From NCBI GenBank assembly GCA_963777505.1, contig CAVZQN010000004.1, positions 608,001 to 672,000 of the forward strand: 64,000 nt of DNA, written 5' to 3'. Source of the DNA: an uncultured bacterium (GTDB lineage Bacteria > Acidobacteriota > HRBIN11 > JAKEFK01). The position numbers and the translations under genes were made by a program. The notes beneath the pieces were generated by a model. The model did not search any database. It was not told the origin of the DNA and worked only from the letters and a program-made list of their open reading frames with translations. Of this stretch, positions 1 to 14,969 are shown piece after piece; within the stretch, counting starts at the first letter, position 1, and each line of letters starts with the position of its first letter.

Positions 1-1150
1 AAACAAGTGACAGCAAAAAGCTGATCAATACAAAAGCTGCGACGAACGCTCTTCCCATATAAACATGCTGCTGTTCATTCTTTTTTGAGATCCAACCATA
101 ATGTTCCAGAATGTCCTGGGTGAACATACTTCCAATTGCAAGAACTTGTGAATCCAGCGAATTCATGACGGATGAAACAACCCCTGCTGCAAGCAATCCC
201 GCGAGGATTCCGGGTGCATGAAGTTCAATCATTCGTGGTAAGACTGTATTTGCTGCAGCTCCTTTCAGTTCTGGAAAATTCAAAACTCCAAGCACACCTA
301 GCATCACGCTCGGAAACCAAACGAATGCGATCGAGATTGGATATAAACGAATTGTGAACTTAAAATTCTCCGCTTTGCTTGAGGTTAGCCAGTGAATGAA
401 AAGATGAGGGAACATGCCGGCTGAAAGCGGAATGCATGTGTATGTTAGCAGCTCAAGCGGCTGAATTTTGTTTTGACGGGAGAGAAGTTCAGGATATTTT
501 TGAGCAACCTGGCTCATAGCTTCCGTCAAGCCTCCCATGTCTTTCACGATCACAAAGAACGCAATCGCTCCAAAAATCATAAATACAAGAGTTTGGAAGG
601 TGTTTACCCATGCAGTTCCACGCATTCCTCCTGTGGTGACATAAATCAAAACAACACCGCAAACAATCAAACCACCGAGCCATTCGGGAATCGCGCCGGC
701 TGTGATCTGATGCAATGTTGCTCCTCCACCCATGACACCAATCAGTAAATAGGGAACTAGAAGAGCAAGCAGAACAACAAACAACAGCAAGCCCAGAGCG
801 CTCGAATTCCAACGATCTCGAAAGAACTGAATTTGCGTTAGGTATCCAAAGCGTTTACCAAGAGACCATACACGGGGTCCAACAAAGAAGAAAATTGATG
901 GGACAATCAATGCTGATGAAGATGCCATCAGCGCAAAAACTCCGATTCCCGTATGATACGCTTCGCCGCTTGCACCCAGGATCGTGAAAGCCGTCATATG
1001 CGTTCCAAACAAAGACATGAAAAGCACAAACGGACCGATCGTTCGAGTGGCTACAAAGTAATCTTCTCCGGTATGGCGGAAAAGCTTAACACTCAATAGC
1101 CCGATCGCAAGGACCGTTACAAAATAAAGGAAGATAACGGCAAGAATCAT
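1..1150 (-). CDS. Sodium:solute symporter (SSS family), 3' end beyond window edge
   Basis: Missing from the ORF track; translated by hand from ATG at 1150: MILAVIFLYF...GEDYFVATRTIGPFV...TAFTILGASGEAY...YVTTGGMRGTAWVNTFQ...MNSLDSQ. These are SSS motifs. ATGA overlap with the DUF3311 stop. Confidence 0.9.
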   Translation of the reverse strand, partial: MILAVIFLYFVTVLAIGLLSVKLFRHTGEDYFVATRTIGPFVLFMSLFGTHMTAFTILGASGEAYHTGIGVFALMASSSALIVPSIFFFVGPRVWSLGKRFGYLTQIQFFRDRWNSSALGLLLFVVLLALLVPYLLIGVMGGGATLHQITAGAIPEWLGGLIVCGVVLIYVTTGGMRGTAWVNTFQTLVFMIFGAIAFFVIVKDMGGLTEAMSQVAQKYPELLSRQNKIQPLELLTYTCIPLSAGMFPHLFIHWLTSSKAENFKFTIRLYPISIAFVWFPSVMLGVLGVLNFPELKGAAANTVLPRMIELHAPGILAGLLAAGVVSSVMNSLDSQVLAIGSMFTQDILEHYGWISKKNEQQHVYMGRAFVAAFVLISFLLSLV

Positions 1151-1362
1151 ACTGCGGTGTGGTCTTCTGAATTTACTTCAAGACCTTCAGGCCAAGCGAA
1201 AAAAGTCAGTCCTGTCATAACAACAGTTGCCGCAACGCAGAAAATGATGTGATACATAAGCCCCGATGGAATTCCTGCAAATAAACGCGTATCGTTCCAT
1301 AACCACAAATCATTATGCAATGCAAAGAGAATAATCAACCCAAGGTATAACAAGTGTTTCAT
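1147..1362 (-). CDS. DUF3311-like small membrane protein, SSS transporter partner
   Basis: 71 aa, two TM segments, LHNDLWLWND...AGIPSGLMYH; lies directly upstream of the SSS gene. Confidence 0.8.
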   Translation of the reverse strand: MKHLLYLGLIILFALHNDLWLWNDTRLFAGIPSGLMYHIIFCVAATVVMTGLTFFAWPEGLEVNSEDHTAV

Positions 1363-1376
1363 AAATGGCTGTTATT

Positions 1377-1394
1377 AACCGCAAAGACGCGAAG
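1377..1394 (+). repeat. 18-bp interspersed repeat (AACCGCAAAGACGCGAAG family)
   Basis: Related copies at 11211-11228, 26452-26469, 30155-30172, 40296-40313 and 56727-56744. Confidence 0.7.
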
Positions 1395-1407
1395 TCCGAA
1401 TTTTCTC

Positions 1408-12679: not shown

Positions 12680-12694
12680 ATGTTGCTTAAGCCC

Positions 12695-14923
12695 CTATTT
12701 TGTCGATTTGGGAGTGACTTGAACATTATCAAAGTAAAGAACTGTTGTTGAATTTCCGTAGAGCCCTGGACTACCTTTTGTAATCGGAATCGGATCTTCT
12801 ACGACAATGCTCCATTGCTCCGGTTCCGGATCGGCTTTTGGCCAAACCTTACCTTTGATTTCAGCCTTATTCCCTGAATAATCGATCTGCATTTTCATCG
12901 TATACCAGGTATCCGGTTGCCATGCGAATTCTGCACTCTTAACAATTCTGAGTTCGGAAGCCCATGACCGAATTTGCAAACGCTGATGGCTTCCCATTAA
13001 ATCGAGAGTATAACCACTGTTAATCAGACCGATATCAGGAACGCGTCTCTTGTCTTTGGTTCCCATCACATCGGCCGAAATTACATAGTCCTTCATTGTA
13101 GAAGGTCCCATGTAAATATCGCCGCCTTGAATGCCGACAGCTGCAGGTGGTTTGGCAAGAACTTTATTGCCGCTCAAATCTTTCACTAAGAATTTCTTGC
13201 CTCCGGCACCGATCCAATAACCGGGACTGGAATCCACAGCGAATGTTTCGAAATCTTGCTTCAGAGGAAGCGGTGCAATGATTCGAATTCTTGCTTTTGC
13301 TTCAAGTTGACCAACTTTAGCGCTAATTGTTCCTGCTTGATTTCCCGCTGAAGCATCAGGTGTCATCTTCCCATTGGGATCGATTTGAACTTTCAATGGA
13401 GCCGTAGTCCATGTTCCGTTTGCTTCTTTAAGGAAGGCGCCATTCGCGTCAAATGTTCGGATCTTAAATGGAACTGTATCTGTAGTAGAAATCAAAACTT
13501 CTCCAGGAACGATCTGAATTGCTGCTGGAGCGGCGTTCGGATCAACCGCAGGTTCTTCGAGTTTTACCGGTTGTGGCGGTGTCACTGTGATTTTTTTCGA
13601 TTTATCACCCAGGCAAAACACACCTTCTTCAGTAGCGAAGTAAATTCGCCCATATGCGATCGCAGGGGAGCCATAAATTTCTGCATGACGTTCACCGACT
13701 CTTACTTGATCGCTATCGAGTTCCTTCGGCGCAGTATCACCGAGTTGAATGATCTTGAAGTGACCATTTACTTCGGTTACGTAGATTTTGCCATCAGCTA
13801 TAACTGGAGAGCCTTTTCCCACAGTTCCGATATTGTGCTTCCAGAGAAGTTTTCCAGATGTTGCATCCATCGTATAGATGTTTGCCGAATTATCGATCAC
13901 GTAGAGTTTTCCATTATCAACGGCAGGAGATGTGTAACCCACTTCCAAACGATCGTATCTCCAAAGTTCGCCTGTCTTTGTTATGTCGCCTTTGCCTGTT
14001 CCATCGATTGCGACAACACGTCCCATTGTTGCTTCATCTAGATTTTCTTCGCTATGCGATGCATACACACGAGTTCCATCAACAACGACCGATGAATTAA
14101 TTCCACGCTTACTGAGCTGAAAGCCCCAAACCTTTTCACCGGTTCGGACTTTCATCGCGTAAATACCTCCGTCTGCATTGCCGCCAATCAAAAGGCGTTG
14201 CCCATTAATCACAGCGACAACAGGAGTTGAGTAGACGTTGAAATCGTAAACGGCTCCGCCTGGAGTTGAAACCCAAACGACTTTGCCATCATTTTTGTCG
14301 AATGCATAAAAGCGGTGACGTGGAGGAGCATAGTCTCCCCATTCAACACTAACAAAACCTTGAATAACTAAATCACCATCCACAACAGGTGTATCGGTTC
14401 TCCCGCCATATCCTGAAACATGACCAAAGTCTTCAGTCAACGGATAAGACCATAAAATTTTTCCATCTTTGTTGTATCCAATGAGCATTCCGCCGACACC
14501 ATGCGCGTAGATATTTCCTGTTTCAGGATCTCCAACAAGGCTGGCCCAACCTACACGGTTGTACGGGACAGTGCTATGGTAAACGTGGAATTTGTGTTCC
14601 CATACAAGTTTGCCTGTTTCTGCATCAAAGCAAGCAACATGTTCTTGCATCAGCGGGCCACCACCTTTTGCATCAACACCGGTTCGGCCGATTACATAGA
14701 CACGGCCATTCATAACAATCGGAGTCGAACGCCCAACGAAATTTGATTTCCAAATCAGGTTGTCTCCTTGAGTTGACCAACTTGAAATCAAGTTCTTCTC
14801 AGAAGATGTACCGGTTTGATTTGGCCCACGCCAACTTGGCCAATCGGCTGCAAGTGCGGGCAATGCTGCCAGGATGATCAATACAATAAAGAGACGAGTA
14901 CGACGCATTTCATGATGTGCCAT
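12695..14923 (-). CDS. Exported PQQ-like beta-propeller with C-terminal Ig-like and beta-sandwich (LamG/DUF1080-like) domains
   Basis: ALA-ADWPSWRGPNQTG, propeller repeats, Pro-rich linker, then DTWYTMKMQI...GKVWP...PGLYG...FDNVQV. Confidence 0.82.
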   Translation of the reverse strand: MAHHEMRRTRLFIVLIILAALPALAADWPSWRGPNQTGTSSEKNLISSWSTQGDNLIWKSNFVGRSTPIVMNGRVYVIGRTGVDAKGGGPLMQEHVACFDAETGKLVWEHKFHVYHSTVPYNRVGWASLVGDPETGNIYAHGVGGMLIGYNKDGKILWSYPLTEDFGHVSGYGGRTDTPVVDGDLVIQGFVSVEWGDYAPPRHRFYAFDKNDGKVVWVSTPGGAVYDFNVYSTPVVAVINGQRLLIGGNADGGIYAMKVRTGEKVWGFQLSKRGINSSVVVDGTRVYASHSEENLDEATMGRVVAIDGTGKGDITKTGELWRYDRLEVGYTSPAVDNGKLYVIDNSANIYTMDATSGKLLWKHNIGTVGKGSPVIADGKIYVTEVNGHFKIIQLGDTAPKELDSDQVRVGERHAEIYGSPAIAYGRIYFATEEGVFCLGDKSKKITVTPPQPVKLEEPAVDPNAAPAAIQIVPGEVLISTTDTVPFKIRTFDANGAFLKEANGTWTTAPLKVQIDPNGKMTPDASAGNQAGTISAKVGQLEAKARIRIIAPLPLKQDFETFAVDSSPGYWIGAGGKKFLVKDLSGNKVLAKPPAAVGIQGGDIYMGPSTMKDYVISADVMGTKDKRRVPDIGLINSGYTLDLMGSHQRLQIRSWASELRIVKSAEFAWQPDTWYTMKMQIDYSGNKAEIKGKVWPKADPEPEQWSIVVEDPIPITKGSPGLYGNSTTVLYFDNVQVTPKSTK

Positions 14924-14951
14924 TCACTTCCTCGGGGTAATATTTGGATTT

Positions 14952-14969
14952 TCTACTACAACTGTAGTT
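14952..14969. promoter_or_regulatory. Second copy of the ACTACA-AC-TGTAGT operator
   Basis: Identical 18-mer about 29 bp upstream of the first gene of the cluster. Confidence 0.7.

Follow-up and report, generated by a model that had tools for sequence, protein, structure and literature searches.

A conserved multi-phylum gene cluster that joins an EhpF/EhpG-type carboxylate reductase pair to glycosyltransferase, ABC-machine and secreted-propeller genes: a candidate envelope pathway of Acidobacteriota

The closest described relatives of the system reported here are two protein pairs, GriC/GriD of grixazone biosynthesis in Streptomyces griseus and EhpF/EhpG of D-alanylgriseoluteic acid biosynthesis in Pantoea, which both combine a truncated ANL-type adenylating enzyme of ~350–370 aa, devoid of the C-terminal domain, with an aldehyde dehydrogenase (ALDH)-like protein, in this gene order. 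EhpF and GriC use aromatic acids, the substrate of GriC/GriD being 3-amino-4-hydroxybenzoate. For GriC/GriD, PMC10179220 describes that an acyl-AMP is formed first and subsequently reduced to the aldehyde. Here, we analyzed a stretch of 64,000 nucleotides (C4:608001–672000; termed the window) from the genome of an uncultured acidobacterium (5.23 Mb, 14 contigs, 95.9% complete), which carries a large part of a gene cluster built around a pair of this type. The complete locus comprises 19 genes in two units (C4:597692–622923), encoding besides the pair an iron-containing alcohol dehydrogenase (Fe-ADH), a HemN-like radical SAM enzyme (rSAM), five secreted propellers (P742, P478, P364, P410 and, outside the window, P444), a TonB-dependent receptor (TBDR), an SSS symporter with a small DUF3311 protein, a GT4 glycosyltransferase and an ABC machine with an FtsX-type permease.

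In its logic the locus also resembles the heterocyst glycolipid pathway, which joins a fatty alcohol aglycone, the glycosyltransferase HglT and the MacB-type exporter DevBCA: a reduced carboxyl group (alcohol) would be combined with a glycosyltransferase, a DevA/LolD-like ATPase and an FtsX-type permease. Unlike that pathway, the locus contains neither a polyketide synthase (PKS) nor a DevB-type membrane fusion protein, its permease is a duplicated FtsX protein of 1122 aa, TBDR, SSS symporter, rSAM enzyme and propellers are present, and the hosts are not cyanobacteria. Our favoured explanation, held tentatively and with somewhat less than even confidence, is that the cluster encodes a pathway turning a monocarboxylate, probably an aromatic one, into the aldehyde and then the alcohol, which would be tailored, glycosylated and handed to the cell envelope. 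The individual families are known, whereas their joining in one multi-phylum locus is without a described counterpart in the literature searched; likewise, no published description of the cluster itself was found there (supplements and subscription papers lay outside the scope), in line with the proposal of an undescribed system in an earlier note made from the sequence alone.

The reductase pair and the conservation of its gene neighbourhood

The same note had assigned the pair to an EhpF/EhpG-like reduction module, a family assignment that holds for both proteins. Residues 11–333 of the EhpF-like protein match EhpF in the PDB (3hgu/3l2k, chain residues 21–345) with E=2e-42, and Pfam AMP-binding covers only residues 190–302 of its 353 residues. 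As in EhpF, Pfam detected no AMP-binding_C match corresponding to the ANL C-terminal domain, and none of the NCBIfam models matches the protein, which is encoded by a single-copy gene in this genome. The ATP P-loop motif of adenylating enzymes, (T/S)GG(S/T)TGxPK, is represented by ETGGSTGVPKS, with E85, T86, G87, G88, T90, G91, P93 and K94 invariant in 22 of 22 sequences. The database names of close relatives are 'hypothetical' or 'PaaK-like' only.

Plasmid-borne homologues sharing 30–37% identity with the EhpF-like protein occur in three settings. In phenazine clusters the homologue lies directly before a gene for an 'aldehyde dehydrogenase family protein', a pair labelled ehpF/ehpG in the tables of PMC11278526; in Streptomyces clusters it is named 'arylcarboxylate reductase' by NCBI; and on a plasmid of the haloarchaeon Halalkalicoccus it is found directly after an SSS gene and before an ALDH gene. 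The ALDH-fold protein of the window shares 25% identity both with the ALDH beside the EhpF homologue in an E. coli plasmid phenazine cluster (E=4e-37) and with the Halalkalicoccus ALDH (E=5e-37). The presumed catalytic Cys, in NGGRSC, and the presumed oxyanion Asn, in PSNSPG, are invariant in all 21 aligned sequences. A reductase of this type would not require the general-base Glu of hydrolytic ALDHs; the position equated by eye with ELGG reads HGPG in the window protein and QGPG in the EhpG-like protein.

The predicted complex of the two proteins reached a score of 0.72, compared with 0.45 for the best of three controls. In a benchmark this mark was attained by 58 of 80 solved complexes and by 2 of 110 mismatched pairs, counts that apply only roughly because our own alignments were fed into the prediction. 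Contact agreement of the runs was at least 90% and the partner pLDDT at least 87. The predicted interface is located on invariant residues of both partners (Q230, R233, F234, E238 and L239 of the EhpF-like protein, S14 and G38 of the ALDH-fold protein) as well as on the nearly invariant ALDH residues L15, Q34 and N36. The model supports, but does not show, that the two proteins bind each other.

Most likely, the EhpF-like protein is the carboxylate-activating half of a two-protein carboxylate reductase and the ALDH-fold protein its reductase half. Judged by sequence, the pair represents a new and highly conserved clade of the EhpF/GriC–EhpG/GriD type, sharing the truncated adenylase, the gene order and the presumed catalytic Cys and Asn with the described pairs. 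It is set apart from them by its identity values, 30–37% to those proteins versus 60–81% within the clade across phyla, and by its surroundings, where no phenazine, AHBA or PKS cluster is present and the pair is instead linked to GT4, MacB-type ABC, transporter and secreted-propeller genes.

A lack of conserved linkage had been named in the earlier note as the outcome that would speak against its proposal. The comparison was run and the gene order was found to be kept across Acidobacteriota and other phyla, and this objection therefore fails. Among 401 genomes of the phylum, the EhpF-like protein was matched in 100, with 59–81% identity in 97 of these; two of the remaining three contain relatives of 34–37% identity and one a 50-residue fragment. 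Within the phylum we sampled 20 loci of 20 kb from different families, in all of which the ALDH-fold gene adjoins the EhpF-like gene. A long architecture, P742-P478-EhpF-ALDH-FeADH-P364, was observed in five of them, four of which include the rSAM gene, and a short architecture, EhpF-ALDH-GT4-ABC-FtsX or parts of it, in about 11. The cultured strain of record CP011806.1 is among the carriers of the long architecture.

The same gene order was present in records labelled Latescibacterota, Gemmatimonadota, KSB1, Thermoanaerobaculia and Holophagales. For a cross-phylum sample we used the best 80 of 151 confirmed loci, with EhpF-like proteins 67–81% identical, from metagenome-assembled genomes (MAGs) labelled KSB1, Calditrichia, Latescibacterota, Gemmatimonadota, Thermoanaerobaculia, Holophagales, Blastocatellia and Phycisphaerae; these loci keep the gene order of the window. 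Since the caller of open reading frames (ORFs; longest ORF, greedy) errs in high-GC loci, the reported counts were obtained by tblastn, requiring at least 30% identity (38–40% for propellers) over at least 50% of the query and scoring anything lower as absent. The counts (Table 1) are lower bounds because the loci end at 10-kb flanks or at contig ends, and the low values for the distal genes are due to flanks of only 10 kb. In five complete genomes with such loci, orthologues of GT4 (49–56%) and FtsX (38–48%) were found in all five, and in four of these GT4, ABC ATPase and FtsX genes lie directly beyond the cluster. All four carry the gene for the DMT-like membrane protein, which is 64–73% identical across genomes, and three of the four a 4HBT thioesterase and a P444-like propeller. 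Their distal order is [TBDR]-[PaaK-like]-[flavoprotein]-[DUF3311-SSS]-GT4-DMT-[4HBT]-ABC-FtsX-[P444-like], with brackets marking genes not found in every genome.

Genome-wide, 107 of the same 401 genomes contain a GT4 orthologue (E≤1e-60) and 104 an FtsX orthologue (E≤1e-120). GT4 accompanies the EhpF-like protein in 98 genomes, and FtsX accompanies it in 95; all three are present in 94 of the 110 genomes holding any of them, also where the genes are unlinked. These tallies include the unpublished genomes G049 and G152, both with all three markers; without them the EhpF-like, GT4 and FtsX counts are 98, 105 and 102 of 399, with all three in 92. Most of the 16 discordant genomes show weak matches or are incomplete. 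In Terriglobia-like genomes the set is split into sub-clusters yet kept; where the pair stands alone, the sub-clusters seen were flavoprotein-DUF3311-SSS-GT4...ABC-FtsX, GT4-ABC-FtsX-rSAM-flavoprotein-4HBT-PaaK-like, and FeADH-P364-TBDR-SSS-ABC-FtsX with a DMT-like gene. The near-universal core of reductase pair, GT4 and Lol/MacB-type ABC machine argues for a carboxyl-reduced, glycosylated and envelope-delivered product.

Several variants were seen at the EhpF-like gene. In a genome of the same genus (G041:C2:728795–729851) the match is divided into two adjacent pieces, residues 2–131 and 130–353, which would reflect a frameshift, a pseudogene or an assembly error. Locus L042 (G220:C4) carries two EhpF-like genes (7787–8893 and 11538–12629, 67% and 62% identical to the query), separated by ~2.6 kb with a GT4 gene in between. 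In the KSB1-type loci L053, L054, L056 and L060, the EhpF-like gene is followed by an inserted membrane-like ORF of 172–189 aa that matches neither Pfam nor NCBIfam; in L056 and L060 the ALDH gene comes immediately after this ORF. The Terriglobia-like loci L050 and L051 contain an ORF of 109 aa with CxxC...HHPD a short distance upstream of the EhpF-like gene; this ORF seems to resemble pterin-4a-carbinolamine dehydratase.

Redox, tailoring, propeller and transport proteins

The Fe-ADH belongs to the iron-containing group III enzymes and presumably performs the step from aldehyde to alcohol. It remains below all NCBIfam equivalog cut-offs, the best match being ErcA with 277 of 550 bits.

The HemN-like radical SAM enzyme recognized in the earlier note is borne out by its Radical_SAM and HemN_C domains and by its match to HemN in the PDB (E=2.2e-32). 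It has these domains, CxxxCxxC and GGGTP in common with HemN, HemW and the class C methyltransferases MenK/MqnK, ChuW and NocN. HemN is characterized by a fourth Cys, CxxxCxxCxC, and an RNFQGY loop. In the family analyzed here the fourth Cys is replaced, CxxxCxxC being followed by YF in 44 of 44 members, and a 10-residue gap faces the RNFQGY loop. The motif HNxxYW, given for HemW in PMC10114718, occurs in none of the 44 members. The enzyme furthermore scores below every NCBIfam cut-off (ChuW 203/400, HemN 187/325 and HemW 163/205 bits). Assignment as HemN was rejected on the basis of score, YF and loop gap, and assignment as HemW on the basis of score and missing motif; the enzyme thus appears as a separate HemN-like subfamily that is neither of the two. 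According to PMC10114718, members of the HemN-like group decarboxylate, methylate sp2 carbons (in menaquinone, thiazole and haem), cyclopropanate or act as haem chaperones. For the enzyme of the cluster, we infer class-C-type tailoring such as C-methylation.

All five propellers start with a hydrophobic, signal-peptide-like amino terminus followed by (D/N)W(P/T)xxRG, as read by eye, and appear to be soluble because no lipobox Cys follows. They share the PQQ_2-type fold of BamB and other 8-bladed propellers. The AlphaFold model of P742 (pLDDT 89.4, pTM 0.90) consists of an 8-bladed BamB-type propeller and two β-sandwich domains (approximately residues 468–556 and 579–738), with BamB (3prw) as the best PDB fold match (E=4.9e-18). 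Its carboxy-terminal 293 aa gave no Pfam family match even at E≤10, and the fold search with the whole model was dominated by the propeller. P478, likewise 8-bladed (pLDDT 83.7, pTM 0.87), is the best conserved propeller, with 58–69% identity to the window protein in an alignment of 24 sequences. It contains many invariant Asp, Glu and His residues, e.g. D219, E220, H222 and D334–E339, and is therefore possibly an enzyme or a metal site. BamB was also its first fold match (E=9.8e-21), PQQ (pyrroloquinoline quinone) alcohol dehydrogenases following only at target-normalised TM-scores of 0.36–0.41. For both models the next matches after BamB were tetrathionate hydrolase and YxaL, and the target-normalised TM-scores were 0.67–0.80 for BamB versus 0.33–0.45 for PQQ dehydrogenases. 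In NCBIfam the window propellers score 36–94 bits against a PQQ dehydrogenase family cut-off of 480, and far below the BamB equivalog cut-offs. No cofactor or PQQ site was identified in the two modelled propellers. The label 'PQQ-like' of the earlier note hence applies to the fold, and beyond the fold it does not, the two modelled propellers matching BamB best. Unlike BamB, the propellers lack a lipobox Cys and occur as five paralogues in one locus, P742 has its two extra β-sandwich domains and P478 its invariant acidic/His set. P364 is kept beside Fe-ADH and TBDR in the scattered Terriglobia-like arrangement, and P410 orthologues usually stand just before the TBDR in the 80 cross-phylum loci. 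Elsewhere in the genome, propeller paralogues are encoded at C4:977128–978036 and C4:1634519–1635796, with 45% identity to P478 and 50% to P444.

Among the transport proteins, the TBDR marginally passes the NCBIfam model TonB-siderophor TIGR01783 (225.3 bits versus a cut-off of 223.5) and reaches no NCBIfam equivalog, the best being Fiu with 158 of 686 bits. The SSS symporter yields weak NCBIfam matches to PanF, PutP and MctP, all below cut-off. As for the MctP permease and its DUF3311 partner in Rhizobium and Sinorhizobium, a small DUF3311 gene overlaps or precedes the permease gene; on the MctP model the window symporter scores only 66.6 bits against a cut-off of 625. A DUF3311 pairing is also reported beside the MctP pyruvate/monocarboxylate symporter of Sinorhizobium fredii in PMC9100948. 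In other genomes, orthologues of the symporter (53–59%) adjoin GT4 or ABC-FtsX genes.

The GT4 protein contains a CxxC (MYCG[ST/A]C) in an amino-terminal loop in 32 of 32 orthologues, at a place where ordinary GT4 enzymes have a Gly-rich loop, which suggests a metal or redox site. Selenocysteine, considered because of '1 TGA' flags in GT4, was rejected: in the three loci where it could be placed, the TGA is a true stop four residues from the end of the alignment, and in three further loci no internal stop was seen. The 167-aa protein was classified as 'EamA/DMT-like' by the ESM Atlas with 0.97, by features only, a lead rather than a finding. The LolD-like ATPase remains below the NCBIfam cut-offs of LolD (261/308 bits), YbbA (207/336) and DevA (163/296); together with the FtsX permease it is assigned, at family level only, to the MacB/LolCDE-type ABC machines by its sequence matches.

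A halogenase-like flavoprotein and a 4HBT thioesterase recur as cluster members across phyla, as does a PaaK-like ligase in other genomes, which was not found in a search of this genome. Flavin-dependent halogenases are marked by GxGxxG and WxWxIP; the flavoprotein has GGGPAG and WFW(Y/S)IP in nine of nine sequences. Its best NCBIfam match is CmlS (187/900 bits); QhpG, LodB, GoxB and the geranylgeranyl-reductase family are matched as well, and none of these scores reaches its cut-off. The genome analyzed here encodes the flavoprotein in a stand-alone gene with WFWYIP (C4:1178505–1179827, L149 6505–7827), ~555 kb from the cluster and 50% identical to the cluster-borne copies of other phyla.

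Extent of the locus and its non-coding elements

Based on ORF calls with Pfam and NCBIfam matches, the eleven co-oriented genes described in the earlier note are all present on the minus strand between window bases 1 and 14923. Their apparent end at window base 1 did not stand, as the cluster extends ~10.3 kb beyond it with eight further co-oriented genes separated by −4 to +39 nt. The junction overlaps previously pointed out could be read directly from the sequence: TGATG joins the EhpF-like and ALDH-fold genes, and ATGA is found at the P364/rSAM and likewise at the DUF3311/SSS junction. The Fe-ADH and P364 reading frames overlap by 17 nt, and a 189-nt gap separates the rSAM gene, the end of the first unit, from P410 at the start of the second. 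Starts from the longest ORF are too long for the ALDH-fold protein, rSAM (6445) and TBDR (3513), because relatives start later; for the ALDH-fold protein, whose longest ORF has 509 aa, the ATG at 10149 within the TGATG overlap is used by relatives, and for the TBDR the Met at 3513 opens the signal peptide. The TPR gene of the locus was not conserved in the loci of other genomes compared. On the other flank, window positions 15086–22908 contain apparently unrelated genes not conserved with the cluster, coding for a Rce1-like CAAX protease, an S9/S15-type peptidase, a SnoaL-like protein, an APP1-like phosphatase, an S10 carboxypeptidase and a TPR-containing Ser/Thr kinase.

Table 1 Features of the locus. 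Positions refer to the window unless stated otherwise; the last column gives the number of cross-phylum loci (of 80) with the gene.
Feature	Position	Strand	Match or remark	Loci of 80
Propeller P742, 742 aa	12695–14923	minus	Pfam PQQ_2 3.7e-35	50
Propeller P478, 478 aa	11243–12679	minus	Pfam PQQ_2 3.2e-29	53
EhpF-like adenylating enzyme, 353 aa	10149–11210	minus	PDB EhpF E=2e-42; Pfam AMP-binding, partial	80
ALDH-fold protein, 486 aa	8689–10149	minus	Pfam Aldedh 3.7e-13	72 (adjacent to EhpF-like)
Fe-ADH, 387 aa	7520–8683	minus	Pfam Fe-ADH 2.8e-48, ADH_Fe_C 1.2e-38	55
Propeller P364, 364 aa	6442–7536	minus	Pfam Beta-prop_ACSF4 219 bits (cut-off 133), PQQ_2 4.7e-46	52
HemN-like radical SAM	5096–6445	minus	Pfam Radical_SAM + HemN_C	48
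Propeller P410, 410 aa, first gene of second unit	3674–4906	minus	Pfam PQQ_2 1.8e-34	34
TBDR, 701 aa	1408–3513	minus	Pfam Plug + TonB_dep_Rec_b-barrel	33
DUF3311 small membrane protein, 71 aa	1147–1362	minus	Pfam DUF3311 33.3 bits (cut-off 30)	10
SSS symporter, full length 498 aa	2–1150 in window, 3' end before window start	minus	Pfam SSF 5.2e-32	6
GT4 glycosyltransferase, 437 aa	outside window (locus L002 10344–11657)	same as cluster		8
DMT-like membrane protein, 167 aa	outside window	same as cluster	without family match	6
YbgC/FadM-type 4HBT thioesterase	outside window	same as cluster		
Propeller P444, 444 aa, fifth secreted propeller	outside window	same as cluster		
CPA2 antiporter-like protein	outside window	same as cluster		
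LolD-like ABC ATPase	outside window	same as cluster	ABC_tran 9.7e-35	8
Duplicated FtsX/MacB-type permease, 1122 aa	outside window	same as cluster	FtsX in two stretches + MacB_PCD	5
TPR protein	outside window	same as cluster		
Palindrome	4937–4950	minus	just after TTGACT 4955–4960; 31 nt before P410 start codon	
Palindrome	14955–14968	minus	after promoter-like TTGACT-17-TATTTT (14999–14971); 32 nt before P742 start codon	
GC-rich hairpin GGCCGCAT..ATGCGGCC	5009–5026	minus	between the two units; no T-run, not listed by terminator scan	

An operator shared by both units had also been proposed. The shared sequence is indeed present before both units, as two exact copies of the 14-nt palindrome ACTACAGTTGTAGT (ACTACA-GT-TGTAGT), each inside an identical 18-nt stretch, where 0.10 chance matches are expected and the observed count was reached by none of 100 shuffles; that it acts as a regulator-binding operator is the conjectural part of the proposal. 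The promoter scan yielded one promoter, for the first unit only. Genome-wide we found ten palindrome matches with at most one mismatch, only three of which are clearly intergenic and upstream of genes. The third of these (C11:128956, locus L135 ~5957; one mismatch) has the same TTGAC-spacer layout and precedes an operon for an intradiol-dioxygenase-like protein (201 aa), an alpha/beta hydrolase and a second CPA2 antiporter-like protein, which possibly belongs to the same regulon as the cluster. No regulator gene was found beside the cluster or beside this other intergenic site. In 148 of 149 other loci there was no match to the palindrome, the single match lying elsewhere in the same genome; the same-family loci in this comparison had flanks of 1.5 kb.

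The 160-nt spacer between P410 and TBDR (3514–3673) contains two GC-rich inverted repeats, a perfect one of 12 bp, CTATTGCGCCGG...CCGGCGCAATAG, and GGGGCGGC...GCCGCCC, which may serve in attenuation or processing or represent a REP-like element. A riboswitch or known RNA in the cluster was rejected, with no Rfam match at E≤1 in window 1–15300. No RNA run covering window 5000–14900 was listed, and five runs of DNA or unknown type contained 0.05–0.10 of the words.

A candidate pathway and its alternatives

If the favoured explanation applies, a monocarboxylic acid would enter the cytoplasm, here probably via the TBDR and the MctP-like symporter, and in relatives it may be handled as a CoA thioester by the PaaK-like ligase, flavoprotein and thioesterase. 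After adenylation, the acyl group would be loaded onto the catalytic Cys of the ALDH-fold protein, where NAD(P)H would reduce it to the aldehyde in the manner of GriC/GriD, and the Fe-ADH would convert the aldehyde to the alcohol. The HemN-like enzyme would tailor the skeleton, most likely by C-methylation, the GT4 would glycosylate the product, and the DMT-like protein with the MacB/Lol-type ABC machine would transfer it out of the inner membrane into the periplasm, for binding or processing by the propellers. The partners encoded outside the window, GT4, LolD-like ATPase, FtsX permease, DMT-like protein and thioesterase, point to glycosylation and envelope hand-over, which figured in neither alternative of the earlier note, i.e. 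synthesis or salvage of a cofactor for the propellers and import with reductive processing of an aromatic or heterocyclic acid. In a refinement of this explanation, HemN-like enzyme, flavoprotein, PaaK-like ligase and thioesterase would provide the tailoring and thioester handling typical of aromatic-acid chemistry, with symporter and TBDR supplying or recovering the acid.

An aromatic or heteroaromatic acid appears to us slightly more probable as the substrate than a fatty acid. Hints towards aromatic chemistry are that EhpF and GriC act on aromatic acids, that the PaaK-like ligase, CmlS-like flavoprotein and 4HBT thioesterase recur, and that the third copy of the putative operator precedes the intradiol-dioxygenase-like operon. 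A further hint comes from the class C HemN-like enzymes described so far, whose targets are sp2 carbons in quinones, thiazoles and haem (PMC10114718). Hints towards monocarboxylate uptake are the MctP-like architecture of DUF3311 and SSS and the position of the haloarchaeal plasmid SSS gene before the EhpF-like/ALDH pair.

A number of points weigh against the favoured explanation. A one-way route of synthesis and export fails to explain why importers (TBDR, SSS) are conserved alongside an exporter-type machine. MacB/FtsX-type systems need not transport, as FtsEX drives periplasmic partners, and GT4 enzymes can also be phosphorylases. The best relatives of the Fe-ADH act on small hydrophilic aldehydes, a poor fit to an aromatic aglycone, and since the Fe-ADH is missing from the short architecture, the alcohol step is not universal. 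The fatty-acid-hydroxylase-family gene nearby in one genome and the YbgC/FadM-type thioesterase fit a lipid equally well. Six genomes (G090, G209, G247, G269, G360, G364) show GT4 and FtsX matches and no EhpF-like protein at E≤1e-10; these matches are weak in G090 and G360 (34–35% identity), and the other four genomes are 93–100% complete. Finally, the cross-phylum sample is biased because it consists of the loci nearest to the query, and related genomes are not independent, so that plain counts only are given.

An unlikely, yet not negligible, alternative is a catabolic or salvage function, in which an external acid, maybe released by the propellers, would be imported via TBDR and symporter, reduced in the cytoplasm and metabolised or excreted; the GT4 would then be a phosphorylase or only loosely connected, and ABC/FtsX would energise a periplasmic step without product export. 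The combination of TBDR, periplasmic proteins, inner-membrane symporter and cytoplasmic enzymes is the layout of a utilisation locus, DUF3311 and SSS match the architecture of MctP-type monocarboxylate permeases, the Halalkalicoccus SSS gene directly precedes a distant EhpF-like/ALDH pair, SSS and TBDR orthologues are retained in other phyla, and sulfoacetate degradation (SauT/SauS) is a precedent for catabolic activation and reduction of a carboxylate. However, the minimal, near-universal set of pair, GT4 and ABC/FtsX has no importer, neither a downstream gene of central metabolism nor a substrate-responsive regulator lies within the cluster, and ATP-dependent carboxylate reduction is costly for catabolism; the single copy and high conservation (EhpF-like 60–81%, DMT-like 64–73%) are more like a housekeeping envelope function. 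The latter conservation also suits a lipid version of the pathway, which we regard as rather improbable: the thioesterase would free a fatty or hydroxy-fatty acid, the pair and an ADH would yield a fatty alcohol, GT4 an alkyl glycoside, and the Lol/MacB-type machine would extract the glycoside to the outer membrane, analogous to heterocyst glycolipid export by DevBCA. Consistent with this, the LolD-like ATPase and the duplicated FtsX with MacB periplasmic domain belong to machines whose cargo is mostly amphipathic or embedded in the membrane, the thioesterase is a YbgC/FadM-type enzyme, and in locus L040 the pair is closely preceded by a 4HBT gene and a gene of the fatty-acid-hydroxylase family. 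Against it, the characterised adenylase relatives EhpF and GriC take aromatic acids, PaaK-like ligase, halogenase-like flavoprotein and symporter are unexpected for a fatty acid, and acyl carrier protein, acyltransferase and fatty-acid-synthesis genes are absent from the cluster.

We give somewhat less credence still to a cofactor function. A small and perhaps quinone-like cofactor would be produced or salvaged by the cytoplasmic enzymes and exported for use by the secreted propellers, and TBDR and symporter would scavenge this cofactor or the acid that is its oxidised form. The pair is accompanied by propellers in both architectures, P478 has its many invariant Asp, Glu and His residues, neither PqqC nor PqqE was found in the genome, and E. 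coli scavenges PQQ via the TonB-dependent receptor PqqU. The flavoprotein resembles the quinone-cofactor maturases QhpG, LodB and GoxB, albeit below cut-offs, and HemN-like enzymes methylate menaquinone (PMC10114718). Conversely, the modelled propellers are BamB-like rather than PQQ dehydrogenase-like by TM-score and revealed no known cofactor site, Sec-type signal peptides speak against cytoplasmic cofactor loading, and glycosylation and a MacB-type machine are not known in cofactor delivery. Phenazine tailoring of the griseoluteic-acid type, or PQQ biosynthesis in the strict sense, is highly improbable, its sole support being that the pair resembles EhpF/EhpG. EhpF-type proteins share as little as 30–37% identity with the EhpF-like protein, against 60–81% inside the clade, and the neighbouring genes are entirely different from those of ehp clusters. 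The absence of phz and pqq genes from the window, stated in the earlier note, was extended to the genome check it had proposed: PhzA/B (PF03284) and PqqC gave no match in the 95.9%-complete genome, weak negatives because 14 control genomes were equally silent, and PqqE matches reached at most 103.5 bits against a cut-off of 381. The joint conservation of importers and an exporter-type machine, which keeps the catabolic possibility alive, also motivates a further idea to which we assign a slim chance, a shuttle of acid and alcohol across the inner membrane. In the cytoplasm, a tailored aromatic acid, which might carry halogen and methyl groups, would be reduced at the expense of ATP and NAD(P)H to the alcohol or to the glycoside of the alcohol. 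This product would be exported by the DMT-like and MacB-type machinery, the secreted propellers would use or oxidise it in the periplasm, and the resulting acid would re-enter via TBDR and MctP-like symporter, an analogue being the chlorinated anisyl alcohol/aldehyde cycle of white-rot fungi. If true, such a shuttle would explain the joint conservation of import and export parts, and a dedicated small-molecule carrier would feed the propellers, which would then form a new class of extracytoplasmic enzymes.

This set of ~12–19 genes is present in about one quarter of the Acidobacteriota genomes sampled and also on contigs from MAGs labelled Latescibacterota, Gemmatimonadota, KSB1, Calditrichia and Phycisphaerae, and the carrier phyla dominate soils and sediments while being biochemically poorly understood. 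The carboxylate reductase pair is of biocatalytic interest, the two-protein type being rare. There is a real chance that the cluster is a new kind of envelope system: a conserved pathway of this kind would define a new envelope component or a new extracytoplasmic small-molecule system, and it would supply a first function for the large family of secreted 'PQQ-like' propellers.

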